64,000 nt of DNA from a virus, in the IMG/VR virus record IMGVR_UViG_3300030116_004952, positions 12,530 through 76,529 of that record; one strand, 5' to 3'. The position numbers and the translations under genes are program-made. The notes beneath the pieces are model-generated. The model saw nothing but the letters and a program-made list of their open reading frames with translations, had not been told where the DNA came from and ran no database searches. This document shows, in pieces, positions 13,057-38,306 of this stretch (within the stretch, counting starts at the first letter, position 1; every line of letters begins with the position of its first letter).

Positions 13057-13944
13057 TTACCACCATTCGTCTAATTTCATTTGTATTTTTCCTGTTCTTA
13101 TTGAAGATACATCCCAATTCATCGCTCGATAAATTGGTTCAGCCTTTTTGACTATTTGTTCTGCATAATGTTTGTAGTCTGGAGTATAGTTGTCAAAATC
13201 ATCATACGTTGTTGCAGATACATATTCTACTTCTCTCTTTTCTTTCGTCAAAGGATGAGTATATGTGTCATGCACGTTCTTAACCTTGAGATATAAATAG
13301 GAGTCATCAAAGGTCATATTTAATCTTTCCCAAGCATAGAGAATACCTGCAATACCCGAACCAATTGCGGGTCTTTTGTAAGTAAAGGTTAGAAACTGTT
13401 CTGTTTCTGTTCCGCATCTATCACACCATTTAATTTTAATACATTCTTTTAAGTGGTGTTTCTTCTTACATTCTGGACACTTAAGAATAACTCTATCTTC
13501 TCTTAGACGGCTACGTTTTACAATATCAGAAGTATTTACTTTACCTTCCATAACTTCATTATATTTGTCAGAAAGATACTTGTTTATTTCTCCCATTGTC
13601 TTTTGTCCGACCCACATCTTCAATACTGTTGTTTGAACATCCTTAGCGAGTTTTGTTTCACTAACACGCTTTGCAGTAAAACCTGTCATTGTAAATTTAG
13701 GCTCATCAAGCCAAACTCCATCTTCCCAAGATACTAAACCTGCATTCCGATTCTTTGTTGTTCCAACACCTAATGCAGAATAATACTTTTCAAACTCAAG
13801 AACAACTGGATGTTGTTCAAGATTTAATACATTAGGAAAGTGTTCACGAACTGAATCTTCAATCTCCTTGATTGCCGATTCAGCCTTTTCAATAGATTCA
13901 ATCTGAACATAGATTGAATCCGTATGTCCATAAACTACTTTCAT
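13057..13944 (-). CDS. polB: Family B DNA polymerase, C-terminal part (motif C, thumb)
   Basis: Starts MKVVYGHTDSIYV after a GGTGA RBS; LEFEK, KNRNAG motifs; inserted CPEC...CDRC zinc finger. Confidence 0.85.
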   Translation of the reverse strand: MKVVYGHTDSIYVQIESIEKAESAIKEIEDSVREHFPNVLNLEQHPVVLEFEKYYSALGVGTTKNRNAGLVSWEDGVWLDEPKFTMTGFTAKRVSETKLAKDVQTTVLKMWVGQKTMGEINKYLSDKYNEVMEGKVNTSDIVKRSRLREDRVILKCPECKKKHHLKECIKIKWCDRCGTETEQFLTFTYKRPAIGSGIAGILYAWERLNMTFDDSYLYLKVKNVHDTYTHPLTKEKREVEYVSATTYDDFDNYTPDYKHYAEQIVKKAEPIYRAMNWDVSSIRTGKIQMKLDEWW

Positions 13945-13948
13945 AGTA

Positions 13949-14143
13949 TCACCATGCGTTCTCAAAGTAAATCTTACCATCAGTATATTGCATCAATTCC
14001 TGCTTGATAGTTTTAATATCCTTAACTAAGTCTGCGAATGTTACATTCTCTTCGTAAAGTTGGCCTATTTCATTTTCAAGCCTCTTTACTGTTTGCTTCA
14101 AATTTGCTATTTCTGCTTTTAATTCTTTAATTTCTTTGCTCAT
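13949..14143 (-). CDS. Small coiled-coil protein between the polB halves
   Basis: Heptad pattern IKELKAEIANLKQTVKRLENEIGQL. Confidence 0.6.
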   Translation of the reverse strand: MSKEIKELKAEIANLKQTVKRLENEIGQLYEENVTFADLVKDIKTIKQELMQYTDGKIYFENAW

Positions 14144-14645: not shown

Positions 14646-16301
14646 TTATTCCATCTCCTTTGCTTTAAAAGCAGCCAAACGAATTGCTTCTCTAGCACTA
14701 GCAGTAATACTAGCGGCTAAATCTACATCAGCCCAACCAAATCCTTGAAAGGCTACAATGCCATAGAATGATGCCATTAATCTTTTTACTGCCATTTGAT
14801 TGTTATACCACTTGACATATTCATTTTTATCATCATTCTCTCTTGCTTCTTTCATAAGACGCTTGTATTCGTTTCTCAATTCTTTTAATTCAAGAACTGC
14901 TCTCGGTAAAAGACCGAGATTATCTGTCTTATAATAGAGCATTTGTTCTCTATCAGTAATACTGAAATCTCTTGGTGTTAAAATATTTACACCAAATTCT
15001 GTTGGTTCTTCTGATTTAGTTTCCCATGAAATGTTTCTTGCAATCATCATTGAAGGATATAGTCCTGCAAAATCAAAAGCAGCAACATTAAGATGTAGTC
15101 CATTTGTTTCTTCACTTAATGGGTCATAAATCATAGCACCATCATATTCTTGACGCTTCTCTACCTTTTCGCCTGTTGGTGCAATCCATGTAGCATTACG
15201 CATAAAATAGATTGAACCCATATGACTTGCATAAAAACAAGCACTAAATGGCGCAATTAGAAGTCTTTGTAATGCTATAATTGCTTCACTACAATAATTC
15301 AATTCATCAATTTCAACCATCAATTCAACATCTATCTGAGCATACTTAAGATATGTCTCAGTATCATTTAACCAACCTTCTCGATAGAATACATTCGGGT
15401 CTGGGAACTTTTCACTAACAAGTTTCTTTCTTCCCAATACTGCTTCAGAAATGTAATCTAAAGACATTGACGGTAATGTTCCCCTTTGAGAGTCATTCCA
15501 TTGTCTTTCAAAAGCAAGGTCTAAATTGAGGGTTATGCGACCCCCAATAGGCTGTTCAATTGGCCCGAACCCATTCTTGCCATAATTGAAAACAAAGCCA
15601 TTCTTAGTATTCTTAACGCCCTTAATTGTCCTAATTGGAGATATGGTAGTAGGGTTCAATCCCAAAGCACACGCTCGCTCAAGGAGTTTTGGCAAATCGA
15701 ATTTTAAACCAAACCAAGCAATTAACATATCAGGGTCTTTATCAACCATTGTTACCATAAAGTTTTCAATCATATCCTTTTCACTATTAAATGTAAATGT
15801 AGATGTAGTGTCATAAACTAAATCACGTTGCAATTCTTTAGGAAACCAAACCCATTGAAAGTATTTCTCATCATAATTATCATAAACTACAATAGTAGTA
15901 ATACAATCGTGATATTCTCCACCTTGTTGCCATTCCATATCCCAATACCATTTACGCATTTCATATTCTGGTAATGAACCTAAAGAATCAACTGCATATC
16001 TAAATGCATATGGAACATCTGCTTCAAAGGTTTTTACAAAAGAACGTCGAGCAATATGAATGTCATCAGACTTATCTACATAAACTCTAGTTAATTTTTC
16101 ACCTTGAAGATTGTGCCAATTACCTTCTTCGTAAGTAAATTCTCTTTTTACAAATTTAGAAGGATTGTAATACTTAGGTTGATTATCAGAAGATAGGATA
16201 TAAAAATAAGGAGTAAATTCGACAACTGTTTGTCTTTTCTCTCTACCCTCTCTCCATGATGTATAAACGTGCTTTCCTGTTACTGTTTTACTTATTATCA
16301 T
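14646..16301 (-). CDS. polB: Family B DNA polymerase, N-terminal part (3'-5' exonuclease, motifs A and B)
   Basis: WDME (ExoI), FGLKFDL (ExoII), YAQID (ExoIII), DFAGLYPSMM (motif A), QMAVKRLMASFYG (motif B); ends before motif C. Confidence 0.92.
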   Translation of the reverse strand: MIISKTVTGKHVYTSWREGREKRQTVVEFTPYFYILSSDNQPKYYNPSKFVKREFTYEEGNWHNLQGEKLTRVYVDKSDDIHIARRSFVKTFEADVPYAFRYAVDSLGSLPEYEMRKWYWDMEWQQGGEYHDCITTIVVYDNYDEKYFQWVWFPKELQRDLVYDTTSTFTFNSEKDMIENFMVTMVDKDPDMLIAWFGLKFDLPKLLERACALGLNPTTISPIRTIKGVKNTKNGFVFNYGKNGFGPIEQPIGGRITLNLDLAFERQWNDSQRGTLPSMSLDYISEAVLGRKKLVSEKFPDPNVFYREGWLNDTETYLKYAQIDVELMVEIDELNYCSEAIIALQRLLIAPFSACFYASHMGSIYFMRNATWIAPTGEKVEKRQEYDGAMIYDPLSEETNGLHLNVAAFDFAGLYPSMMIARNISWETKSEEPTEFGVNILTPRDFSITDREQMLYYKTDNLGLLPRAVLELKELRNEYKRLMKEARENDDKNEYVKWYNNQMAVKRLMASFYGIVAFQGFGWADVDLAASITASAREAIRLAAFKAKEME

Positions 16302-26513: not shown

Positions 26514-26789
26514 CTATTCTTCCTCCTTAAAAAAATGCACCTTTGAATTCCCAGTTCCTTTCACTGGTTTTCCAGTAAAGTTACTTAATCTTACTTTGCT
26601 ATAATTATTGTCAAGAAATGAAATTAATTCACCCGTTGTGGGAATCCGTTTAAAACATACACCTTTATGTTCCCGTTTATTTAAATAAATATACAAATCA
26701 TCTAGTATTGTATTTACTGTTTTAGGTTCGGAAGTTATTATTTCTTCCAACCAACGTTTGACAAAAACATTCATTTTTTTTCTTTTCAT
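26514..26789 (-). CDS. Small basic protein, possible wHTH
   Basis: PKTVNTILDDL...PTTGELISFL pattern. Confidence 0.45.
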   Translation of the reverse strand: MKRKKMNVFVKRWLEEIITSEPKTVNTILDDLYIYLNKREHKGVCFKRIPTTGELISFLDNNYSKVRLSNFTGKPVKGTGNSKVHFFKEEE

Positions 26790-26800
26790 TCTCCCTATAT

Positions 26801-28315
26801 TTATTCCCCCATCAATACTGCTACATCAGTAGTTAAGAAAAGATTTGCGATTGACATAGCCGCATCAAAACTTCCTATTGTTACAAGAACAGGGTCAAAA
26901 ATTCCTGCTTCTCTTAAATCACAAGAAACACCTGTTACCATGTTAATACCCATATCTCTATTATCATCAAGAAGCGCATCATATCTATCAACATCAATTC
27001 CTGCATTTTCTACTAAAGTCTGTAAAGGAGCAGTTAAAGATTTATACACAATAAAATCTCCTTTCTGTTCAATGTCTAAAACCTTTCTCGCATTATACAA
27101 TGACTTTCCACCACCAATAATAATTCCACCCTTTAATGCAGATTTAGTTGCATTTAGAGCATCATCGAGTCTTTCCTTTGTTTCACGCAGTTCAACAGTA
27201 GAACCAGCACCAACATGAATGATAGCAACTCCACCCGCTAAACGTGCCAATCGTCGCTTCAATCTTGCTTTGTCAATGCCCTTTGCTTCTTCGATACTGC
27301 CTCTTAGTTGAGCGATTTTATCTTTTGGATTACCTTCTCCGCCAATCAGAATAGTTCTCTCCTTCGACACCACAACCTTTGAACAACTTCCTAGTTCTGT
27401 TAATGAAACTAATTGAGGGTCATCCTTTGCTTCGTTAGTAAATACTTTACCTCCCACTAAAGATTGAATGTCTCCTAATTCATCAATCTGAGCATCACCA
27501 AAATTAGGTGCAAGAATAGCGGCACATTGAATTGTATTTGCTACTACATTGGCAATAAGATTATTCAATGCTGAACCTTCCATGCCTCTACACATAATTA
27601 ACAATGGTCGGCTTTGTGCAGAAGAAATTTCAAGAACTGGTAAAATATCTTTAAAGTTACGAATGTTTAAATTCGACATAAAGATAAGAGGGTTCTCAAA
27701 TACTGCTTCACCATTTTCAGTATTCGCCATAAGATGACTTAAATAACCTTCATCAAGTTCAATACCTTCTCTTACTTCAAGATAGGTTTTATTTGTTTTA
27801 GATTCTTCAACCGCAACAATGCCTTCTTTGCCAACAGTCTTTACTGCTTCGCTGATGATATTCGCCATTTCTTCATCATTGTTTGATGCAATCATGGCAA
27901 TATCGAATACATTCTCTTCATCAATTTCTGTTGAAGTTTTATAAAGATAATCTCGAACCTTTACTCCTGCTGTCATCAATTCAATTCTTAATTTGTGAAG
28001 ATTATACATTTCTTCATTATCGAGAATATTTTGACAAAGAGCCTGTGCTAAAACACAAGCCGTTGTAGTTCCATCACCAGAAGTATCTTGAGCCTTTGAT
28101 GCAATATTCTGAACTAACTGAATACCCATATTAACGAACTGGTCATCAGCATTTACATACTTTGCAATTGTTACACCATCATTAATTACAACAGGGGGAT
28201 TACCCTGCAAAATAACTGTTTTTGCTTGTGGCCCTAATGTTGGTTTAACCGTATTAGCAACAAGATTAATTCCTTCCATTAATTTCTTTTTTACTTCATC
28301 TCCAAATAGAATCAT
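26801..28315 (-). CDS. groEL: Group I chaperonin GroEL
   Basis: TLGP, INDGVTIA, GDGTTT, GGVAIIHVGA, DALNATKSA, GIFDP; likely start MILFG. Confidence 0.95.
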   Translation of the reverse strand: MILFGDEVKKKLMEGINLVANTVKPTLGPQAKTVILQGNPPVVINDGVTIAKYVNADDQFVNMGIQLVQNIASKAQDTSGDGTTTACVLAQALCQNILDNEEMYNLHKLRIELMTAGVKVRDYLYKTSTEIDEENVFDIAMIASNNDEEMANIISEAVKTVGKEGIVAVEESKTNKTYLEVREGIELDEGYLSHLMANTENGEAVFENPLIFMSNLNIRNFKDILPVLEISSAQSRPLLIMCRGMEGSALNNLIANVVANTIQCAAILAPNFGDAQIDELGDIQSLVGGKVFTNEAKDDPQLVSLTELGSCSKVVVSKERTILIGGEGNPKDKIAQLRGSIEEAKGIDKARLKRRLARLAGGVAIIHVGAGSTVELRETKERLDDALNATKSALKGGIIIGGGKSLYNARKVLDIEQKGDFIVYKSLTAPLQTLVENAGIDVDRYDALLDDNRDMGINMVTGVSCDLREAGIFDPVLVTIGSFDAAMSIANLFLTTDVAVLMGE

Positions 28316-28443
28316 TCTTCCATCTCCTTCGACCTTTTCCATGCATCAAAAAGTTGTTTTAGAATAGAAGGGTGAGTTTCATTAACCCACGTTAGAAATT
28401 CTGCAACTCCTTCTATTGCCATTTCTTCAGTAAATACTCTCAT
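28312..28443 (-). CDS. 43-aa hypothetical between groES and groEL
   Basis: MRVFTEEMAIEG...KEMEE*; ATGA-coupled on both sides. Confidence 0.45.
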   Translation of the reverse strand: MRVFTEEMAIEGVAEFLTWVNETHPSILKQLFDAWKRSKEMEE

Positions 28444-28652
28444 TCTAGCACCGCCAAAATCCAATCGTCATGAATAAATTTAAATTCACCTAAATCTTCA
28501 ATAGGTTTGAGTAAAGAAAAAACAACACGTTTTCCGACAATATCTTTATTCATACTATCTACAACAACACCGACATTGTTCTCCTTTACAATAATTTGAC
28601 CTACTGTATCTTCATCCTGCATTACTACTGAATACTTTCCGTATGCTTTCAT
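28440..28652 (-). CDS. groES: GroES-like co-chaperonin (short)
   Basis: MKAYGKYSVV...GQIIV...GVVV...VGKRVVF...FIHDDWILAVLE follows the cpn10 pattern; upstream of groEL. Confidence 0.7.
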   Translation of the reverse strand: MKAYGKYSVVMQDEDTVGQIIVKENNVGVVVDSMNKDIVGKRVVFSLLKPIEDLGEFKFIHDDWILAVLE

Positions 28653-28864
28653 TCTTCTTCGCCTCCGATATAAACCCACTTCTTCTTTAGAGTCATATCG
28701 GTATAAGTCCAAATATGATTTTGATGAAACTTTTCTAGTTTCTTATCACGTTCAGTTTTCTTAGACCATGTTACTCCTTTTTGTGGACTACGAATGTTTT
28801 TGTCATTCGGGTGTTTTTCAAAGTGCTTCTCTCTCCTTTGTGCTACTGGTGATTTGCTTCTCAT
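28649..28864 (-). CDS. Small basic hypothetical protein
   Basis: Coupled ORF ending GGEEE*. Confidence 0.5.
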   Translation of the reverse strand: MRSKSPVAQRREKHFEKHPNDKNIRSPQKGVTWSKKTERDKKLEKFHQNHIWTYTDMTLKKKWVYIGGEEE

Positions 28865-29373
28865 TCTTCTTCCTCCCTGTATTGATTTTGATAATAACTT
28901 TCACCCATATTACTTTCTTGAATAAAGAGAGTATGTGGGTCAGTATTCTGCCAAAAACCAAAATGTTCTCGACCACCGAGAACATATGCTTCTTTCATCT
29001 TTGTTTGCCAAATATTAACAGTATTCCAATCAGTTCCGCTAAAGTATGCTTTACCAAAAGGATGAGTATGAATCCAACACTTAATCGGTAATTTCATTCC
29101 TGTTGGCTGTTGCATAAAAGATACAAAACCTGTTGAACCAGATGATACGAAACAATTATCATTATCATCAATTACAACTTGAACTTCAAGATGAGGTAGA
29201 ATCTTTGTAGACATATCCCAAATAACACCAAAGAAACTTGTTTCTGCAAATGGTTCAAAATCTGAATGTTCATTATACCAATCAGTTCTAGCATTCCATG
29301 TTTCTTTAATTGATTCCTCAACGTAATCTCTTCGATTTTTTAATTCTTCTTCATACGGTATCATTATTTTCAC
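28861..29373 (-). CDS. JAB/JAMM (MPN+) metalloprotease
   Basis: Upstream Glu (LEVQVV) plus H-x-H-x7-S-x2-D motif (HTHPFGKAYFSGTD). Confidence 0.85.
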   Translation of the reverse strand: MKIMIPYEEELKNRRDYVEESIKETWNARTDWYNEHSDFEPFAETSFFGVIWDMSTKILPHLEVQVVIDDNDNCFVSSGSTGFVSFMQQPTGMKLPIKCWIHTHPFGKAYFSGTDWNTVNIWQTKMKEAYVLGGREHFGFWQNTDPHTLFIQESNMGESYYQNQYREEEE

Positions 29374-30109
29374 CTACTAGTTTATCCAACTTTGCTTGGA
29401 GTTTTTGTTGCTTCTTCAACTTTCGACGTTCTCGACGAGAAAGAGGTTTTTTCTTTGCTTCGGCCAAAAGACCTTCCATTTCCTTTGTATAATTTTCAAA
29501 GGCCAATTTCCACGACTCTTCAGACAATGTTAAAGTAGTGGCCATTGTTCTGTTTTGCGACTTAAGTTTGCTAACTTCTTTTCTTAGGCTAACAATACTT
29601 TCTTTCTTTTGCTTAAGAAGCCTTTCAAGTTCTGAGTAAGAAAGTTTTGATTCCTTCTTTGTTTTCTTAGAACCAGTCTTTTCTGTCTTTGCAGAAAGAA
29701 CCTTCTTAAGTTCCTTACGTTCCTTGAGATACTTATTCCAACAATCTTTACATTGTTTGTTTCCTTTCTTCTTAAAAGAAGGATACCAGTTTTTATCAGT
29801 CAAAGCAACGCCACAAGTTCTACAATTATTCTTCGTTGTAGAAATCTTTTTCTTTGAAGTCTTTTTCTTAGGCTTAGGGCTAGGCTTAGGCTTTTTACCA
29901 ACTGCTCTTGTATTTGCTACAAGTTTAGCCCCAACCTTATTCTTTCGCATGGAAGAAGCCTTTACTTCAACTGACTTGAAAGTTCTTACTTCTCCAAATT
30001 TTTCTACAAACTTCTTATAAATTGTCTTTGCAGGTTTGTTTAAATGCAAATACATAAATGCCGTTTGTTCTGCTGTCCATCTGTTATTTTGTTTTACCAT
30101 ATTTTTCAT
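29351..30109 (-). CDS. DNA-binding protein: Myb/SANT-like N-terminus, Cys4 zinc finger, coiled coil
   Basis: RWTAEQ...RTFKSV; CRTC...CKDC; K-rich linkers. Confidence 0.55.
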   Translation of the reverse strand: MKNMVKQNNRWTAEQTAFMYLHLNKPAKTIYKKFVEKFGEVRTFKSVEVKASSMRKNKVGAKLVANTRAVGKKPKPSPKPKKKTSKKKISTTKNNCRTCGVALTDKNWYPSFKKKGNKQCKDCWNKYLKERKELKKVLSAKTEKTGSKKTKKESKLSYSELERLLKQKKESIVSLRKEVSKLKSQNRTMATTLTLSEESWKLAFENYTKEMEGLLAEAKKKPLSRRERRKLKKQQKLQAKLDKLVGENNDTV

Positions 30110-30113
30110 CTCC

Positions 30114-30674
30114 TTATAGGTTAATCATAACGAAATCTTTTACTTCTTCTTCGTTAAAGAATTTTTGTGTCCATTGTGCGCCCATTCCTGCAATTACAAT
30201 TTGCATGAATTGAACGTTTTTGTTAGTTCCATCCCAAGAATCTCCTTGACAACTGAAACTTCTATCATCTCCTGCTAATAGGCTATCATAAAGCATTGGG
30301 TCGGAAAGCGATGAAATCAAAGCCGAGTTCCTACCCTGCGCTCTAAGGTCAAGCCACTTAAGACTTGTGTTGTATAACGTGCGTCTTACTCCTAAGTTAT
30401 CTACACAACACACAACTAGGTCATATCCTTGCATTTGTTTTTCTGAAAGAATCTTAAATGTATTACCAAAACCAACACTAGAGTATGTATCTCTCATAAC
30501 TAATGCCTTATTCTGCCCAATATGACCTTTCTTAAAGTTTTGATAAGTTAAGTTCTTTTCTTCAACAACATCGGGGTCTGCGACTGTAATATCATATAGC
30601 CCAACTTTATCTAAGAACTGAATCAAAAACGAACCAATTCCACCTGCTCCAATTACTAATATTTTTCTTTTCAT
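30114..30674 (-). CDS. ThiF/MoeB/E1-like adenylating enzyme
   Basis: VIGAGGIGS, DPDVVEEKNLTYQ, CVDN, candidate catalytic Cys in SFSCQ. Confidence 0.88.
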   Translation of the reverse strand: MKRKILVIGAGGIGSFLIQFLDKVGLYDITVADPDVVEEKNLTYQNFKKGHIGQNKALVMRDTYSSVGFGNTFKILSEKQMQGYDLVVCCVDNLGVRRTLYNTSLKWLDLRAQGRNSALISSLSDPMLYDSLLAGDDRSFSCQGDSWDGTNKNVQFMQIVIAGMGAQWTQKFFNEEEVKDFVMINL

Positions 30675-30676
30675 AT

Positions 30677-31537
30677 TTATTCCTCTTCTTTTATGTTTAT
30701 TAAATCTGCAAAGGTTTTACCTTTGACTTCTTTTGCTTTTGTTAAACCAATTAGTTCAAGAACTAATTGAGTTTGTTTCCATATTGCTACGGTGCTGAAT
30801 CCTAACTTATCGGAAATCATTCCTCTATTGATAGGATGCCAATTGAACATATTTACTGTAATCCAGCAAATGCTCGCATCATAACTTTTTCCTTTGTTGA
30901 AGTGGCTATCTCGAATAACTCCTTCAAAGAATTCATAGACTTCTGTTGCCTTTAGATGAAAGGCTAAGTCGTCTGTCAATTTAGAAAGTTCACGCTTAAA
31001 TTTAAATAACGAGTTATCTCTTGTATTTGGTTTTCTATATTTGCGAATCTTTCTAATCATCTTATTTACTAGTTTAATACTACAATCAAACTCTTCGATA
31101 ATATCTTTTGTTTTTACTGGCGTTCCATTTTCTTCAAGAAGAATATAGACCATCGCACTACATCTGACTTCAAGATTAGAAGCACCAAAAACATTCTTTT
31201 CATACAAAGACATATACATCATTTCAGCATCACGCTTTATTGATGAAAAGCCTAATCTTGCTAAAATCATATTTGTCATCACAAGTGCTTTGTTGATATG
31301 TGTAGACATATTATTGTTTAGTCCACCACGATTAAACTTATACGAACCCTTTCCTGTAATAATAGAACCTAATCTATTATTATCAGGATTTCTTACAAGT
31401 TCACCTTGTTTTGCAAGAATAACCTGTTCTTCAAAGGCATCATAAATTAATACAAGCCCACATTCAGAACATTCCTTTTCTCCTAGTCTTTCATTAAAGT
31501 TAAATTCCCTACATCCACATTCTTCACAACTTATCAT
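30677..31537 (-). CDS. tfb: Transcription initiation factor B (TFB/TFIIB) homologue
   Basis: N-terminal zinc ribbon CEECG...ECSECGLV followed by two cyclin-like repeats. Confidence 0.8.
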   Translation of the reverse strand: MISCEECGCREFNFNERLGEKECSECGLVLIYDAFEEQVILAKQGELVRNPDNNRLGSIITGKGSYKFNRGGLNNNMSTHINKALVMTNMILARLGFSSIKRDAEMMYMSLYEKNVFGASNLEVRCSAMVYILLEENGTPVKTKDIIEEFDCSIKLVNKMIRKIRKYRKPNTRDNSLFKFKRELSKLTDDLAFHLKATEVYEFFEGVIRDSHFNKGKSYDASICWITVNMFNWHPINRGMISDKLGFSTVAIWKQTQLVLELIGLTKAKEVKGKTFADLINIKEEE

Positions 31538-32787
31538 TATTCTTCCTCCAACGGATTTATTGCCATTGTTACAAGAGGGTTTCTAATAGAATCTGGTTCA
31601 TTAGTTAAATACCTCTTAATTGTAGAAACTCTCGAAACTGTCATAGTATCATTTAGAAACGCTAATGCTCTTGCAACGAATTGGTCGCCAATTGAAGAAC
31701 CACTTTGCATATTATCAATACAAATTGGCCCTTTCCAATGTCCACCTTGAGTTACCTTCAAATGCTTTCCATCATCGTCAAGAATTTTATCTCCGCTTTT
31801 AGTATAGCAATAAACTTCTTCACTTCCCCAAACATAAGAACGAACATCTTGTGTTCCACTTGCTTTATAGCGAGAAGGTTCAATTCTCCAATCATATCCC
31901 TTTCCACGAACAAAGACTTCTTTAGGATAGCGATTTCCTTCTTCATCGGGCTTATCCCAAGATACATAGATATTATCATATTTTTCATTTACCTCTCTAA
32001 GAAGTTCTAGTGCCTTATCTTCAACAATACCATCCTTTCGATTTTGTTTCAAAAACTCTACCATAAGTTTATATTCTGATTCAGAACATGGGCGACCCAT
32101 TAATCTTTCAAAGAGAACTGATGGAGTTAAATCCTTCCAATGACCACGCTTCTTATTATGAACATATGAATTAACCATAGTATTTAGATTAGCAGTATTA
32201 ATTGTTCCCCAAACACCATCAGAAATTTCTAATGCAAATTCATCTGAACCAATCTGTTCTACATTGATTAGAACATCATGTCGGTTATATCTCTCATCAA
32301 AGAAATGATATGCTAAGCGATTCTCCAAAACGTGTCGAATGTTTTCGGGCATATTCAGATAGTGATGCATAACAGATAATAGAACCGTCATATCCTTCTC
32401 AAAACAAGACTTGTAAATAAGTCTTGATAGTGTTTCACAAATAATGATTTTAGATTTCTCAATACCATTCAAAGAAAAACGATTATTCTTTCTTTGAATA
32501 AAGACAGGTAATGTTCCAATTGTTAAAAACAAATCGAAGTCATTTCTGGTATTAATGTTCAAATAACTACCATTATATCTTCTCCTAGAACCCAATAAAT
32601 TACTATTAACAAAATCAGCGATTGCTGAATTAGTTGGGTCTTTCTTATGTGTAAAACTTCTAGGAAATATCCTAACAACTCCATTATGGCGATGAAGATT
32701 ATCACTATATATTACTGCTTCATAATTTAATTGTGTATCATCTACTTTTCCTATTCTTAATATTAATTTATTCTTTTCTTCTTCCAT
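31537..32787 (-). CDS. Hypothetical protein (C-terminal GPICID; speculative E2-like)
   Basis: Long co-oriented ORF; function not recognised with confidence. Confidence 0.5.
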   Translation of the reverse strand: MEEEKNKLILRIGKVDDTQLNYEAVIYSDNLHRHNGVVRIFPRSFTHKKDPTNSAIADFVNSNLLGSRRRYNGSYLNINTRNDFDLFLTIGTLPVFIQRKNNRFSLNGIEKSKIIICETLSRLIYKSCFEKDMTVLLSVMHHYLNMPENIRHVLENRLAYHFFDERYNRHDVLINVEQIGSDEFALEISDGVWGTINTANLNTMVNSYVHNKKRGHWKDLTPSVLFERLMGRPCSESEYKLMVEFLKQNRKDGIVEDKALELLREVNEKYDNIYVSWDKPDEEGNRYPKEVFVRGKGYDWRIEPSRYKASGTQDVRSYVWGSEEVYCYTKSGDKILDDDGKHLKVTQGGHWKGPICIDNMQSGSSIGDQFVARALAFLNDTMTVSRVSTIKRYLTNEPDSIRNPLVTMAINPLEEE

Positions 32788-32791
32788 ATTA

Positions 32792-32959
32792 TCACATCAT
32801 ATACATATTGTCATCTAATTTTTGTTCACATACTTCGTGAACTTGTCTCTTTATTTCTTCGGGAATCAATAATTGACCCCCACAAATACGGCAACGAGTT
32901 GCTACTCTTTTACCGTATGCTCTATGACTTTTAACAAAGTCTGGATTTTTTTCTTTCAT
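32792..32959 (-). CDS. 55-aa zinc-finger protein
   Basis: Manual translation MKEKNPDF...CRICGG...HEVC...MM*. Confidence 0.5.
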   Translation of the reverse strand: MKEKNPDFVKSHRAYGKRVATRCRICGGQLLIPEEIKRQVHEVCEQKLDDNMYMM

Positions 32960-33308
32960 CTTTCATACCTCTATATTTATTATTTATTTCATCTATATAA
33001 TTTATATCATTATTACGGTAATAAGAAAACATTTCTACAACGTCTTTGAGTTCATCTTCAAGGAAAAGAACAAAGCCAACCTCTTTGGCTTCGTCAATAT
33101 CCCACAAACACTTGTGGTAAAGCACATTATATAACCTTACCTTTCTATCATGTTCATTTTCTAACTGGTCGCAGACATTGAATGTTTTTTCTAATCTTTC
33201 TTGAGATTCTAAGGAGAATCTCTTTGCATTCAATTGAACATACGCTTTGAAATCAGCGTAAGAAATGTTTCTTAAAGCCCGATTAGATTTCACATTGTCC
33301 ACCTGCAC
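32931..33308 (-). CDS. Hypothetical protein
   Basis: Co-oriented ORF downstream of the RNR. Confidence 0.45.
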   Translation of the reverse strand: MQVDNVKSNRALRNISYADFKAYVQLNAKRFSLESQERLEKTFNVCDQLENEHDRKVRLYNVLYHKCLWDIDEAKEVGFVLFLEDELKDVVEMFSYYRNNDINYIDEINNKYRGMKDERKKSRLC

Positions 33309-35151
33309 AGGCTAATTCACCCGATAGGTTTGTATTATCTTGGCTTTCAATTACTTGAGTCAAGTCAATTTCAGATAAATTACCTACAAGTTCTTCATAC
33401 TCTTTCTTTGTAATTGTTTCAAATGGGGCTTGTTTGTATGTTCCACCATCATAAGGTAATACAGACAATCCATTGTAATAGTGTCTATTCATCCACATCC
33501 ATTCTCCAACATCATCCCATTCATTCTCTTTAATTGAGATTGTTGCAGAAACATTATGTGTATTCAATCCATCCCTATGACCTTCACGAACCCAACGAAT
33601 GCTAAAGTTCTTAACTCGGTCTAATAAATCAAATACATTTTCTGTTCTAATTGTTGCATCAGTTGGTGCTTTTTGAGGAATAGAAATAACTGCTTGTTCT
33701 GTTGGGTTAAAGTATTCATCTTCAACTAATTCTGGATGATGAACTGCCAAATAAGAATATATCGCTTCATTCTTCCCAACTCTTACTCTACGAATGTAAT
33801 ACTTATCATGCCATGCATGAATACCGCTTGAAGTTCCTAATACAAGAGAAGTTGTTCCTGCTGGTTTTACACAAGTAACACGACTTGCTTCATTAATACC
33901 AATAATAGTTGCGACTCTTTTATTTTCCATTTTAGCAGCAAACGCAGCCATTTCTAAATCTAATTTTTCAACAACTCCAGATGCAATACCTGTCATTGAT
34001 ACTCCAAGTAATGAATCTTTTTCACTATTCTTTTGCCAAATTTCTCTTAGATAATGAAAGTCAGTATATCCTGCCTGTAATGTTCCTAAAAACGAAGCAG
34101 CCTTAACTCTCGCTTCTAAATCAAATTGGTCAGTAACATTTGAAGCATTTACTTCTGTAAGATTACAGAATTGATATGGTCTTAATGCAATTTCACAGCA
34201 AGGATTAGTTCCCCAATCCTTATCATTACTGAAATAAATAGCGGGTTCTCCCGAACCACTATGCTGAATACGTTCCCATAATTCCATGAAAAACTCCTTT
34301 GTTACTCGATGACGAAGAATAACTGCTGAATTGTTTGCTCTACCACGTTGAGCATTGTTTTCCCACCAATTACCAGATTTACAAGCAATCATATCTGTAT
34401 CATCAGCACTAAATAGGCTAATCATAGCGGCTCTACGAATTCCACCCGCTAATACTGCATCAGCCAAATGACACATAATATCGTGAACTTGAATTGATTT
34501 TAGTTTTTCACCAATAGGAATGTTTTGAAGAATACCTTCAATTTTAACTAAACATTCTCTTAATGGCTGAAAACCTGGTGCTTTTCCACCACTAGTTCTT
34601 AATAGAGAACCTTTTGGTCTAATATCTGAATAATCAAATACTGGAGAAGAAGAACGAACACCTGTATAGCATTCTAATAGAACTTTAACAGAATCAGCCC
34701 AACCTTCAATTGAATCAGCAATTAAGTATCTTCGAGTTCGATTAGGATTAGGTTGAACAATTTCTGGTAATTGTTCAATATGATGTCTTTGAACAGAATA
34801 ACCTACACCTGTTCCTCCTAACAAAAGAAACATACTTTCTGAAAAAGAAACAATTGAATCAATTGGTAAGTATGCACAATTGTAGACTCTATTCGGAGAA
34901 ATTTCAATAGGCTTTCCACCGAATTGCATAGAACGCATAGAGGGCAATACTTTCTTAGTAATTACAAAGTTATCATAAACATCTCTAATTTCTTTTTCTA
35001 AATCTGGATATTTCTTTATGTGCATATCCATATTTCTTTGAACAATTTCAGTCCATGTTTCTCTTCTTTGCAGTTCTTCTTGATACCGAGCATATTTCAT
35101 ATGCACCGTAATGTCTGATAAAATCTCTTTTTCTGTCGTCATAATTAACAC
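33283..35151 (-). CDS. nrdJ: Class II (B12-dependent, monomeric-type) ribonucleotide reductase
   Basis: YNCA, GGTGVGYS, RRAAMI, TNPCCEI, KPAGT, C-terminal CAGGQC. Confidence 0.92.
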   Translation of the reverse strand: MLIMTTEKEILSDITVHMKYARYQEELQRRETWTEIVQRNMDMHIKKYPDLEKEIRDVYDNFVITKKVLPSMRSMQFGGKPIEISPNRVYNCAYLPIDSIVSFSESMFLLLGGTGVGYSVQRHHIEQLPEIVQPNPNRTRRYLIADSIEGWADSVKVLLECYTGVRSSSPVFDYSDIRPKGSLLRTSGGKAPGFQPLRECLVKIEGILQNIPIGEKLKSIQVHDIMCHLADAVLAGGIRRAAMISLFSADDTDMIACKSGNWWENNAQRGRANNSAVILRHRVTKEFFMELWERIQHSGSGEPAIYFSNDKDWGTNPCCEIALRPYQFCNLTEVNASNVTDQFDLEARVKAASFLGTLQAGYTDFHYLREIWQKNSEKDSLLGVSMTGIASGVVEKLDLEMAAFAAKMENKRVATIIGINEASRVTCVKPAGTTSLVLGTSSGIHAWHDKYYIRRVRVGKNEAIYSYLAVHHPELVEDEYFNPTEQAVISIPQKAPTDATIRTENVFDLLDRVKNFSIRWVREGHRDGLNTHNVSATISIKENEWDDVGEWMWMNRHYYNGLSVLPYDGGTYKQAPFETITKKEYEELVGNLSEIDLTQVIESQDNTNLSGELACAGGQCEI

Positions 35152-35523
35152 CTTAGTTTTGTGGTTTTTGGCAATTTATCTAAAGTAGTGAAAGAATACA
35201 TCCATTCACCATTCTTAAAAACAACCCATTCCTTTTCTTCTATAAATTGCCATTCATCGAATGAGTTTATTACATTGTTTCCAAACTCTTTGATTAGTTC
35301 GGATATTGAATTGAATATTTTATTTTGATATTTAACAACAGTAGTTCCTAAACTTCTAATTTGAGAACCTTTAGGAGATACTGCTATAATTGATTCGTCG
35401 TCGTAAAAATCTGCTTTAAACACAGCAACATTATTTATTACAGTTGGATTCATTAACTTCCAACCATTAATTTGCATCATCATTGTTAGGGCTTCTTCGG
35501 ATATGAAAGATTTTAAATCCATA
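35145..35523 (-). CDS. Hypothetical protein (likely start MDLKS)
   Basis: The track N-terminus overlaps a terminator hairpin, so a downstream Met is more plausible. Confidence 0.5.
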
Positions 35524-35536
35524 ATAATCAACAACG

Positions 35537-35581
35537 AAAAAAAAGGGGGAGAAGAACCCCAACAGTTCTTCCCCCCCAAAA
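35537..35581 (-). terminator. Hairpin + U-tract after the Ubl gene
   Basis: GGGGGAAGAAC...GTTCTTCTCCCCC followed by T7 on the - strand. Confidence 0.65.
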
Positions 35582-35610
35582 GTGCGTGGCTTTGGTATAT
35601 TGAAATTAAC

Positions 35611-35817
35611 TCAATATTGACCTCCAACAATTGCAGGGGTTAAATCGACGCTTGTAACGTCATCCCATGCAATTTCCCGAATTTGCTCTCTCGCAACCAT
35701 TTCACCATTGATAAAGACCCAATGGGTTGGATGGGTGTCAATTTGTTCAATTACCTCGCTTTCCGATAAGGTTAGCGTTGTGTGTCCTGTTTCATTCAAA
35801 ATTGTCAGCGTTATCAT
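35611..35817 (-). CDS. Ubiquitin-like beta-grasp protein (ThiS/MoaD/SAMP-like) with GG + 2-aa extension
   Basis: 68 aa; VFINGE; ...VDLTPAIVGG-QY*. Confidence 0.8.
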   Translation of the reverse strand: MITLTILNETGHTTLTLSESEVIEQIDTHPTHWVFINGEMVAREQIREIAWDDVTSVDLTPAIVGGQY

Positions 35818-35911
35818 ATTATCACTTCCTGTGTTGTTCCATATACCTGTGCCACTTAAGCGTTACTAATCGTTGGGGTTGTGCGCTTGTCTCATTATTG
35901 TCGAAATGCAA

Positions 35912-36211
35912 TCAAATCATCTCCTTGTCCATTTTCTCATATTGTCGTTGTTCACGCAAATAGCCATCAAGGATATAGTCTACCTTTTCTGGTAATGCGT
36001 CAAATATACCTGCAATAAGTTTCCTATTGAGGCTTATCCAAATACGGTGATAAGTATTAATTATCACCTTTGGTTCATCTTTTTCGTTCATAGTTACGAC
36101 AATGGGAGGTAATTCCTCATCATCAACTATTCTAAATTCTACTGGTTTCTTTTCTTGTATTACTGTCATATTATCATCTCCTAAATAATTTCTAATTGTT
36201 CCATAAACCAA
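35912..36211 (-). CDS. Hypothetical protein
   Basis: Co-oriented ORF. Confidence 0.55.
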   Translation of the reverse strand: MVYGTIRNYLGDDNMTVIQEKKPVEFRIVDDEELPPIVVTMNEKDEPKVIINTYHRIWISLNRKLIAGIFDALPEKVDYILDGYLREQRQYEKMDKEMI

Positions 36212-36368
36212 ACTAGGACAATAAGGGGTAGCATAAATAACATATATGCATAATGTCCTACCGTCTTAATTAGGTAAATTAACTCTCTCTTTGCTGTTTT
36301 ATATGCTCTTTTGAGCAAACTTTCTTCTATATTATTCCAAAACATATTTATTTCTCCTTGTGAATAAG

Positions 36369-36440
36369 CGGGCATAACAGGAATCGAACCCGTATCTTCG
36401 GCTTAGAAGGCCAAAATGCTATCCATTACACCATATGCCC
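36369..36440 (-). tRNA. tRNA-Arg(TCT)
   Basis: GGGCATA/TATGCCC acceptor; TTGGC-CTTCTAA-GCCGA anticodon arm; ACGGG-TTCGATT-CCTGT T arm; no encoded CCA. Confidence 0.92.
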
Positions 36441-36447
36441 ATTTTGT

Positions 36448-36774
36448 TTAACCAACATACGCCAACAATGCAGGTATGTTTTTTGTTTGAGTAAGCATTT
36501 GAATGCGGTCTGTATTATCTGTATTAGAACGGATAATAGCAGTTGCAACTGTTTCAGCAAGTTTCTGAATACTGCAATTAACTAAAACATCTCGAACTTC
36601 TTGTTCTAAGAAATCAAGAAACGCTTCTTCTGCTTTACAAGACATACATTCAACTTTCATCATCACATCGTGATTATAGTCTGCTTCAAGGATAAATCCA
36701 CGACCACCACAATCTTTACAGACCATCAAAAGTCCTCCGTAATAATGAATTCTTTTGTATCTTTTTGACTCCAA
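36448..36774 (-). CDS. Zinc-finger protein
   Basis: CKDCGGRG...CMSC. Confidence 0.55.
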   Translation of the reverse strand: MESKRYKRIHYYGGLLMVCKDCGGRGFILEADYNHDVMMKVECMSCKAEEAFLDFLEQEVRDVLVNCSIQKLAETVATAIIRSNTDNTDRIQMLTQTKNIPALLAYVG

Positions 36775-36998
36775 TACTGATATGTTAGCATTGTTGCAAT
36801 CATATAGTTATAGTTTGTTGAACTAGGATTCTCTATAAACATCTCAAATGCTGCTTGTAAATAATTATTTGCATTTGCAATTCCTAGTTCTTTCTCCATT
36901 GAATCAACAGCATCATGGATTGAACCATACTTCTGCTTCAATATCTGAAGAGTCTTTTGTTCTACGTTATTAAAAAACAATTTATTTTCATCTTTCAT
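36726..36998 (-). CDS. Hypothetical protein
   Basis: Co-oriented ORF. Confidence 0.5.
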   Translation of the reverse strand: MKDENKLFFNNVEQKTLQILKQKYGSIHDAVDSMEKELGIANANNYLQAAFEMFIENPSSTNYNYMIATMLTYQYWSQKDTKEFIITEDF

Positions 36999-37000
36999 TT

Positions 37001-37642
37001 TTACACTTCCTTTAATTGTATATTTGCGTCGAATGCTTTATTGAATGCCAACGCCCATTCATTGTATTTAACTTCATATTGGTTTGCAGGAAACCAATCT
37101 GGCCTTCTATTCATTCGCCATTCAGCGAACTTCCATTTGCCTTCAAGATAGTAATGGCGATATGATTGTATTACATATTCCCATTCATCATCAAAGGTAT
37201 TTTCTATGCGATATTTGTCAAGCATAGCAATTTTTACTGGAGATGCTTTACTTGAAAAAGCATCTCTAAGGTTAATAGCCATGTCAAGAATTCTTTTTTC
37301 ACTTCCATGTGTTTTTCCATACCTAAACGTATATTCTTCACAAAGAGCCAAACCATGTTCATATAACCACTTTGTATTGTGTAATGATTCTCTCGCCCAA
37401 ATAGTTGAAGGGTGATTCAACATAGCGGGTTTCATTAGAGTAGAATTACTTTGTGCATGGAATCGCTTAAGTTCTCCGAGAGATGGTTCAAAACCATAAA
37501 CACCTTTGAACATTGTAAATAGTAAATTAGTATGCAACATTTGACAAGTTTCTGTTGGCATCTTTACAACGTGCTTATCAAGCATTTGTTGTGCTGATTC
37601 AACAGGACATTTACTTAGTGCAAATATATTCATCTTCTTCAC
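37001..37642 (-). CDS. Pyrimidine-dimer DNA glycosylase (DenV/endonuclease V)-like protein
   Basis: MNIF...DKHVVKM...QML...NHPSTIWARES...EYTFRYGKTH...YRHYY family pattern. Confidence 0.75.
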   Translation of the reverse strand: MKKMNIFALSKCPVESAQQMLDKHVVKMPTETCQMLHTNLLFTMFKGVYGFEPSLGELKRFHAQSNSTLMKPAMLNHPSTIWARESLHNTKWLYEHGLALCEEYTFRYGKTHGSEKRILDMAINLRDAFSSKASPVKIAMLDKYRIENTFDDEWEYVIQSYRHYYLEGKWKFAEWRMNRRPDWFPANQYEVKYNEWALAFNKAFDANIQLKEV

Positions 37643-37774
37643 CTCTTAGTTTAGCAAAATGTATATCTGCTAAAGGGTCGCCACACACGGTCATAATTTC
37701 TTCCCATGCATCTTCACCATAAACTTCCTTAATGTGTTTGTTAATATAATTAAACCATCTTAGCCAAATTTCAT

Positions 37775-37957
37775 TCATTCTTCTTCACCTCTAATTTCGT
37801 ATAATTTGTCCATAAGATTCCAATACTCTTTTTCATCTTTTTCAGAAAGAGCAGCAATTACTTTTGTCCAATCCGTATATCTTAAGTATTTCTTTTGAGC
37901 CTTAATTTCAAGTTCTAGAATCCTTTTCTTTAGTTCAAGTTGTTCAACAGGGGTCAT
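37775..37957 (-). CDS. Small hypothetical protein
   Basis: Coupled ORF ending GEEE*. Confidence 0.5.
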   Translation of the reverse strand: MTPVEQLELKKRILELEIKAQKKYLRYTDWTKVIAALSEKDEKEYWNLMDKLYEIRGEEE

Positions 37958-38120
37958 TCTTCATCACCTTTCCAATACCATGTTTGTTCGCCTAATTCGT
38001 CTAAAGTCATATCAAATGTTTTGGCAATAACATTCATTGGGATGCACATATACCATCCAATTTCACGGCTTTCGCCATTAAATTCCTTATAGTTTTTTCG
38101 CATAAATTCAATGATTGGAT

Positions 38121-38306
38121 TCATTCTTCTTCACCATCCTTATTCATAGCATCTGTTTCTTCAACTAATTTCATATAATCTCGACATTTGTAATAAATGA
38201 GATTAAATACAACCTTGTGGTGTTCATCTCCTTCATCTCTAGTTTGTAGAAATCTACAAATTAGATTCAATAGTTTGTGCATTTCATTAGTTACTTCTTT
38301 ATTCAT
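38121..38306 (-). CDS. Small hypothetical protein
   Basis: Coupled ORF ending DGEEE*. Confidence 0.5.
   Translation of the reverse strand: MNKEVTNEMHKLLNLICRFLQTRDEGDEHHKVVFNLIYYKCRDYMKLVEETDAMNKDGEEE

Follow-up and report, generated by a model that had tools for sequence, protein, structure and literature searches.

Whether a virus can tag proteins with a ubiquitin-like modifier of its own is the question raised by a locus in the IMG/VR record IMGVR_UViG_3300030116_004952. This virus record is linear, 76.5 kb long and about 83% complete, and its positions 12,530-76,529 were analyzed here as a window of 64,000 nucleotides, in which all coordinates below are given unless stated otherwise. A preliminary description of the window had proposed a conjugation kit made up of a ubiquitin-like protein (Ubl) with a masked Gly-Gly (GG) motif, a ThiF/E1 enzyme and an intact JAMM protease, all encoded in one co-oriented block. 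As judged from sequence comparisons and predicted models, the virus appears to encode its own self-contained system for processing and activating a Ubl, and conjugation of this Ubl to proteins is its most likely output, to which we assign a probability of roughly 60%. The three genes are the following.

35611..35817, minus strand: open reading frame (ORF) for the Ubl precursor, 68 residues, recognized by its AlphaFold2 model and fold matches; C-terminal PAIVGG-QY
30114..30674, minus strand: minimal E1-like, predicted adenylating enzyme, 186 residues; Pfam ThiF match with an E-value of 1.2e-18
28861..29373, minus strand: JAMM/MPN+ metalloprotease (JAB), 170 residues, with E63, H102-x-H104, S112 and D115

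All three genes were found on the same strand, as had been described, but they were not adjacent to each other. JAB and E1 are separated by a variable Lys-rich zinc-ribbon ORF, and the interval from E1 to the Ubl contains a TFB-like transcription factor gene, a conserved ORF of 416 residues, two small ORFs of 55 and 125 residues, a ribonucleotide reductase (RNR) gene and a further ORF of approximately 125 residues.

The AlphaFold2 model of the Ubl, which was built with an alignment of 38 relatives, had a predicted local distance difference test score (pLDDT) of 85 and revealed a β-β-α-β-β-(α)-β topology with a disordered tail at residues 62-68. The 50 PDB rows listed by Foldseek for this model were all ubiquitin, ISG15, NEDD8 or SUMO, with probabilities of 0.87-0.99 and E-values of 2e-3 to 1.4e-2. 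VIA-align, which is independent of Foldseek, placed a bacterial E1-E2-Ubl complex, MoaD, Fubi and ISG15 in its top rows, with Z-scores of 5.0-5.5. The predicted topology and the two fold searches thus agreed with each other, and the assignment of the 68-residue protein to the β-grasp fold was upheld. However, MoaD showed a Z-score of 5.4, the same as the bacterial Ubl, so the fold alone cannot separate a protein modifier from a sulfur carrier. At the sequence level, the Ubl matched no Pfam (ThiS, ubiquitin) or NCBIfam family at a meaningful score and nothing in PHROG or PADLOC, and a PDB profile search gave no relevant match.

In 63 distinct IMG/VR Ubl sequences, the P-A-I-V-G-G motif was essentially fixed and the GG invariant, followed by 0, 1 or 2 residues of changing identity, and the masking of the GG by trailing residues was therefore confirmed. 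Among the best 120 of 1,028 Ubl protein clusters, 117 had an AIVGG or AVVGG ending and only the remaining three lacked it; a two-residue tail was present in 113, with a preference for N, S or Q at the first position and Y, C or L at the second. A fixed GG with a variable tail behind it is what marks a precursor cut after the GG, and by this pattern the viral Ubl appears to behave as such a precursor, for which cleavage is predicted. Directly 3' of its stop codon we found the following element.

35537..35577, minus strand: terminator-like hairpin with a 14-bp stem containing 8 GC pairs, followed by T8

This hairpin (-27 kcal/mol, z -3.5) was the strongest terminator-like site in the region 28000-37000. 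A strong hairpin followed by T8 after the Ubl stop suggests that the Ubl is expressed separately, from a transcription unit of its own.

The second gene was correctly recognized as a ThiF/E1 enzyme: its product passed the Pfam ThiF model (PF00899) at 67.6 bits, where the gathering cut-off is 28.1, and adopted the E1 adenylation fold in a model with a pLDDT of 90, in which only a floppy loop at residues 130-150 was of low confidence. The best Foldseek match of this model was UBA5, with an E-value of 1.5e-12 and a template modeling (TM) score of 0.76; ThiF gave TM scores of 0.76-0.79, and the closest structural matches overall were UBA5, Cap2, UBA3 and ThiF. The PADLOC E1-E2 models and the NCBIfam ThiF, MoeB and UbaA models covered only the N-terminal half of the protein, the UbaA-type model NF047750 scored 37.3 bits (cut-off, 450), and the top PDB sequence match of the E1 profile was AclA. 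In the relatives, the GxGGxG motif and residues D33, N41, K56, D92 and R97 were invariant. From these residues and the modeled fold, the protein looks like an active adenylating enzyme. Its only candidate catalytic cysteine is Cys142, which lies within the motif SFSCQG in the low-confidence loop; the S-C-Q motif was invariant in the viral E1s and present in every host E1 examined. The enzyme has no rhodanese domain.

The JAMM protease also looked intact, as previously described, since E63, H102, H104, S112 and D115 of its E..HxH..S..D motif were invariant in 46 JAB homologs with a mean column identity of 36%. The protein scored 17 bits against Pfam Prok-JAB, which is below the threshold of 25, and the PDB matches of the JAB family profile were all JAMM enzymes such as AMSH, Rpn11 and similar proteins, including AMSH-LP with an E-value of 1.2e-3. 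Viruses whose Ubl ends exactly at the GG still carry an intact JAB. An intact JAB where the Ubl needs no trimming indicates that the enzyme probably does more than trim; for example, it may remove the Ubl from its conjugates.

The three genes were conserved together in related viruses. With E1 or the Ubl as query, 145 IMG/VR loci were fetched, of which 121 spanned the region; all 121 contained the three genes in the same order without exception, and the 24 incomplete loci were all cut by the locus end. The gene order in the 121 loci was Ubl, the ORF of approximately 125 residues, (RNR), the 416-residue ORF, TFB, E1, other genes, JAB, other genes and the chaperonin. The preliminary description had allowed that the small protein might not be a β-grasp protein and that the genes might not occur together in relatives; we found the opposite on both points.

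To place the kit in a wider context, we considered the relatives of the Ubl outside the viruses. An exhaustive profile search with the Ubl returned 134 clusters, and this wider family kept an x-V-G-G motif with tails of 0-5 residues. It included head-to-tail proteins of two and three Ubl repeats, each repeat ending in x-V-G-G, as in polyubiquitin, as well as Ubl-E1 and Ubl-Ubl-E1 fusions, in which the E1 part has the W-L-D-L-R and S-C-Q motifs of the viral enzyme. In other members, one or two Ubl domains were fused ahead of domains that we call X and Y. Cluster records and GTDB genomes placed these relatives in Candidatus Poseidoniales, which is the host order, and some of the carrying contigs were long and cellular (those of 105-212 kb came from the fetched loci, and the cluster records listed others of up to 2 Mb). 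P0131 and P0121, two of the host fusion proteins, had no match in a search of IMG/VR. The host three-repeat Ubl gene (L146-L173, for example L158:10058-10675) is labeled 'archaellum component FlaG' or 'YchJ' in a part of the JGI records and 'hypothetical' elsewhere.

In the host operon, a Ubl-Ubl-E1 fusion gene, JAB and an ORF of 81 residues adjoin the wyosine gene TYW1, and the contigs were clearly cellular, as they also encode an ABC transporter, glycosyltransferases, a GDP-mannose dehydratase and a phosphate transporter. In Poseidoniaceae the order was TYW1, E1, JAB and the 81-residue ORF, with the three-repeat Ubl gene located elsewhere. The host contig L203 carried a 72-residue Ubl ending in VGG-FY, followed by an E1-JAB fusion of 422 residues, an ORF of 106 residues and a TFB-like gene. 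Taken together, the Ubl-Ubl-E1 and E1-JAB fusions, the poly-Ubl genes and the operons in relatives show, at the level of gene architecture, that the Ubl, E1 and JAB form one functional unit.

One cellular contig of 451 kb contained two Ubl/E1/JAB sets located 20 kb apart, one of host type and one of virus type (L201:14523-16983 and L202:16008-18838). The virus-type set was a compact cassette consisting of a Ubl, JAB, an ORF of 74 residues, a Y-family protein (hhalign 96.5%, E 7e-10) and E1. Its Ubl ends in V-F-G and not in G-G, and a search of 20 kb of this contig revealed no further magrovirus gene.

Five host genomes each contained one JAB of this family and two ThiF genes, namely a canonical ThiF/MoeB-type gene scoring 247-264 bits versus a short one scoring 53-62 bits. 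As the canonical gene is separate, the Ubl/E1/JAB set represents an extra host system and not the standard one. The JAB family was present in 88 of the 151 Poseidoniales species genomes sampled, many of which were incomplete. The JAB tree separated host and virus types with 100/100 support, and virus-host identities were about 30% for the Ubl, 27-37% for E1 and 35-44% for JAB. By these comparisons, the viral kit is a diverged relative of the Poseidoniales Ubl/E1/JAB system. Because diverged relatives of all three genes are widespread in genomes of the host order, the virus probably tags proteins itself.

On this basis, the following sequence of events can be proposed. The 68-residue Ubl would have a transcription unit to itself and be produced as a precursor in which two residues follow the invariant Gly-Gly, and the JAMM protease would remove this tail. 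The minimal E1, predicted to be of the homodimer type, would then adenylate the exposed glycine with ATP, and the Ubl would probably be passed to the E1 loop cysteine Cys142, with formation of a thioester. Finally, lysines of viral or host proteins may receive the Ubl. This transfer would either dispense with a classical E2, in the manner of archaeal SAMPylation, or be helped by the 416-residue one-cysteine protein, and the JAMM enzyme would probably also take the tag off again. The targets that had been suggested, TFB and chaperonin clients, are speculation, as is the idea of a counter-defense.

Several observations weigh against this pathway. In E1, an invariant tyrosine (Tyr44, which is His in the host copies) occupies the Arg position of the N-x-x-R-Q motif, the N-terminus is shortened and lacks the helix that carries the Arg finger in MoeB, and the zinc-binding CxxC pairs are missing. 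Cys142 aligned by sequence with a zinc-site cysteine of UBA5 and not with the catalytic Cys250. The Ubl of this virus contains no lysine, and the relatives have no conserved one, which makes Ubl chains unlikely. No UBC-fold E2 (UQ_con, Prok-E2) was detected in the Pfam-scanned proteins, and the PF00179 search of the genome carries no weight, as its control was silent. The link between the 416-residue protein and the host X/Y domains was weak, as detailed below. Furthermore, the argument that a masked GG together with a JAB implies conjugation was not decisive, since QbsE/QbsD and CysO/Mec+ are sulfur carriers whose extra C-terminal residues are also removed by a JAB. Fusions of the Ubl to its partners are not specific to modifiers either, as fusions of MoaD and ThiS have been described (PMC1779556).

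With regard to the step after activation, we examined the conserved ORF between the Ubl and E1.

31537..32787, minus strand: conserved ORF of 416 residues between the Ubl and E1, with invariant Cys356

This ORF was present in every relative locus reaching its position (tblastn), and its single invariant cysteine, Cys356, lies in the motif W-x-G-P-I-C-I-D-N. It had no match in Pfam, PHROG, PADLOC, PDB sequences or ESM-Atlas. The host X and Y domains are related domains of 240-320 residues, homologous to each other at an hhalign probability of 81% (E 1e-5); they matched neither PDB sequences nor Pfam, and an Atlas search with the X/Y-associated protein P0316 returned viral Ubl clusters only. When the 416-residue ORF was compared with the X/Y family using hhalign, the same 35-55 columns around the cysteine were aligned each time with a probability of 1-21%, and the higher-scoring runs gave 11-21% with E-values of 1e-3 to 3e-3. 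None of the virus ORFs gave a significant match to the X/Y profiles in hmmsearch. Given the weak hhalign and the non-significant hmmsearch results, we keep the 416-residue protein as a lead and not as a component: its G-P-I-C-I-D motif makes it a candidate fourth member of the kit, possibly an E2-like carrier. There is a precedent in the bacterial Bub system, in which a minimal E1 without the canonical cysteine still drives conjugation and the Ubl is fused in front of its E2 and cut by a JAB (PMC11601596). In light of this precedent, the host Ubl-X/Y fusions, and perhaps the viral 416-residue protein, are candidates for the carrier step.

The tagging pathway has to be weighed first against a role in sulfur transfer, in which JAB would trim the Ubl, E1 would adenylate it and a host persulfide donor would make a thiocarboxylate, so that sulfur would be delivered to tRNA, a cofactor or a small molecule and no protein would be tagged. 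We consider this unlikely, although it has some standing. The fold search could not distinguish ubiquitin-type from MoaD/ThiS-type proteins, the best NCBIfam matches of E1 were the ThiF and MoeB models, and two-repeat host relatives are named 'sulfur carrier protein ThiS' in some JGI records. SAMP-type systems are known to perform both conjugation and sulfur transfer. Sulfur-assimilation operons that combine ThiS/MoaD, JAB and E1 have been described (PMC1779556), and the host operon adjoins the tRNA-modification gene TYW1 in two different arrangements. The last point is weakened by the fact that synteny with TYW1 within one order is weak evidence. In addition, to our knowledge, no sulfur is used in wyosine synthesis. 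The partners expected for sulfur transfer were not found in the virus, as had been noted in the preliminary description: there was no match to PF01171, PF00581 or PF02391 (TtuA/NcsA, rhodanese and MoaE) in the 76.5-kb record, which is about 83% complete, and no ThiG, MoaE or similar family in a Pfam scan of the replication module. The lack of a rhodanese domain in the viral E1 points in the same direction, and hosts have another, canonical MoeB/UbaA-type enzyme in their genomes for the sulfur-carrier job. Conjugation is also favored over sulfur transfer by the retention of JAB in viruses whose Ubl needs no trimming and by the polyubiquitin-like precursors of the host relatives; we know of no parallel among sulfur carriers to three-repeat polyproteins with diverged repeats.

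A different purpose would be interference with the Ubl system of the host, in which the viral JAB would strip the host Ubl, or the viral Ubl and E1 would compete with or misdirect the host components, so that the kit would act as a counter-measure or a take-over device. This is consistent with the homologous Ubl/E1/JAB system in the host order and with the fully supported separation of the viral and host JAB clades, which is compatible with a long co-existence; moreover, bacteria use the Ubl systems Bil and Bub against phages (PMC11601596). However, the host system was single-copy, stood beside TYW1 in every host locus examined around it, in both arrangements, and was found in more than half of the sampled genomes despite their incompleteness. 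Its single copy, its TYW1 neighborhood and its wide spread give it the look of a housekeeping system and not of a patchy defense island. The virus keeps the full set, although a strategy of deconjugation alone would require neither a Ubl nor an E1 of its own, and the low identity between viral and host Ubls makes cross-recognition uncertain. Interference is therefore quite unlikely to be the purpose of the kit. That the three genes are unrelated neighbors held together by the conserved gene order of magroviruses, with an incidental GG ending, is hardly credible: the genes are up to 6 kb apart with unrelated genes such as TFB and RNR between them, and the whole replication module is syntenic in relatives, but the fusion proteins in relatives contradict this explanation, as do the tight operons of the same three families in a different gene order in cellular genomes and the invariance of the GG beside a variable tail.

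Beyond the tagging of proteins by the virus, a broader but doubtful scenario can be sketched, in which magroviruses and their Poseidoniales hosts each run an undescribed archaeal tagging pathway. Such a pathway might comprise a poly-Ubl-type modifier, the 186-residue E1, the JAMM protease and a new one-cysteine carrier domain (the viral 416-residue protein and, in hosts, the X/Y domain that is fused behind the Ubl as in BubAB). During infection, the virus might turn its orthogonal copy on proteins of the host or of its own and tag them anew, the adjacent TFB-like factor perhaps being one of them.

To understand how the viral kit relates to established systems, we compared it with SAMP of Haloferax volcanii (SAMP1-3, the E1 UbaA and HvJAMM1; PMC4443979, PMC4895103, PMC2948915). 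Both are archaeal and combine a small β-grasp modifier ending in GG with a single ThiF-type E1, no recognizable E2 or E3, and a JAMM protease; HvJAMM1 cleaves Ubl fusions and conjugates, and activity of the viral JAB is predicted. With 37 bits, the viral E1 falls far short of the UbaA cut-off of 450; it is also smaller by about 80 residues and has no CxxC pairs. Additionally, the viral Ubl matches no ThiS/MoaD model, the kit is virus-encoded, poly-Ubl precursors exist in relatives, and the host has a separate canonical MoeB/UbaA-type gene.

Type I Bub operons encode a Ubl-E2 fusion (BubAB) and a JAB-E1 fusion (BubCD) (PMC11601596). They resemble the viral kit and its relatives in having a Ubl that occurs as a fusion or precursor, which in Bub is cut after a conserved Gly by JAB, a minimal homodimer-type, UBA5/ThiF-like E1 without the canonical catalytic cysteine (for the viral enzyme, the homodimer type and the lack of this cysteine are predicted), Ubls of one to three β-grasp domains, and a fusion of JAB with E1 (host contig L203). 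In contrast, the order of the L203 fusion is reversed, with E1 preceding JAB, no UBC-fold E2 or DUF6527 serine protease was recognized here, the conserved loop residue is a cysteine (S-C-Q) and not a tyrosine, and the lineage is archaeal and viral. BilABCD (ISG15-like) and the Ubl/E1/E2/JAB operons of Iyer, Burroughs and Aravind (PMC1779556) likewise unite a Ubl, an E1-like enzyme and a JAB in one conserved set, and bacteria had already been seen to have Ub-like repeats in tandem as well as fusions of a Ubl with ThiF; here, however, there is one adenylation domain of 186 residues and no detected E2. The QbsE/QbsC/QbsD and CysO/MoeZ/Mec+ systems share a β-grasp protein with residues past the GG, a ThiF-type enzyme and a JAMM peptidase, but they sit with biosynthetic genes for sulfur acceptors and their E1 often has a rhodanese domain, neither of which was found here. 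Overall, the viral kit would work most like archaeal SAMP and the Type I Bub operons, although it is a member of neither according to the sequence models.

Cellular Ubl/E1/JAB systems are known from haloarchaea (SAMP) and from bacteria (Bil, Bub and CBASS). In the literature searched, no paper joined magrovirus and ubiquitin, the three main magrovirus papers did not contain ThiF, JAB, ubiquitin or MoeB, and no Ubl system was reported in Poseidoniales; the sole match to Poseidoniales and 'ubiquitin-like' concerned an unrelated enzyme. If the kit does tag proteins, a virus group that is among the most abundant of the surface ocean, and that infects one of the most abundant archaeal groups there, would own a pathway for ubiquitin-like modification. 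Euryarchaeota would then have a second Ubl pathway besides SAMP, one in which precursor genes resemble those of polyubiquitin, and the 186-residue E1 would serve as a minimal model for Ubl activation. The kit offers a concrete handle on host take-over by uncultured viruses.

The kit lies within the replication module, a minus-strand block at approximately 7.9-43 kb of the window. This module encodes a split PolB, RFC, DNA ligase, an ERCC4 nuclease, a Cas4-like nuclease, UvrD helicase, a class II RNR, GroEL and the TFB-like factor. Magroviruses that infect Marine Group II archaea and carry GroEL and RNR have been described (PMC5434244), and the gene set with GroEL and RNR fits a magrovirus of this type. 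The family B DNA polymerase is encoded in two ORFs on the minus strand, 13057-13980 and 14646-16301, with a gap of approximately 660 bases. The other genes around the kit are listed below.

35145..35522, minus strand: conserved ORF of approximately 125 residues, ATG at 35522, located 3' of the Ubl in most relatives (tblastn)
30677..31537, minus strand: TFB-like transcription factor, 286 residues, with weak Pfam Zn_Ribbon_TF and HTH matches
29351..30109, minus strand: Lys-rich coiled-coil zinc-ribbon ORF, 252 residues, variable, between E1 and JAB

The ORF of approximately 125 residues had no Pfam, PHROG or PADLOC match. The 252-residue ORF had no significant family in the same three databases, and tblastn matches were limited to 9 of the 145 loci, and these 9 stem from about five closely related contigs. 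This ORF probably does not belong to the Ubl system.

The stop codon of the TFB-like gene is located 2 nucleotides ahead of the E1 start codon. A TFB-like zinc-ribbon protein is also encoded beside E1/JAB in a subset of host loci (L182:4396-5472, L203:2136-3137 and L202:18029-18838), and this shared neighbor could point to a target or a regulator. On Poseidoniales contigs, a gene for a single-subunit phage-type RNA polymerase (Pfam RNA_pol, 2e-55; L182:1441-4044 on the plus strand and L202:271-2868) adjoins the TFB-like gene at 3-13 kb from the host Ubl-E1-JAB operon. Such a polymerase would not be expected in an archaeon and may be a sign of an integrated element.

Many proteins encoded on the minus strand at 26514-38306 end in GEEE, KEEE or GDEE (for example, those with stops at 28861, 30677, 31537, 37775 and 38121). 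In this region, the next gene begins at an ATGA overlap, with GGAGG or GGTGA plus GAAGA upstream, and the acidic tails look like a by-product of Shine-Dalgarno-like sequences that are read as codons in tightly coupled genes. A basic ORF of 71 residues directly after JAB (28649-28864, minus strand) ends in IGG-EEE; it was considered as a second GG modifier and rejected, as its GG is probably the translated Shine-Dalgarno-like sequence of the next gene. Acidic endings of these types were also present on host proteins of the Ubl system.

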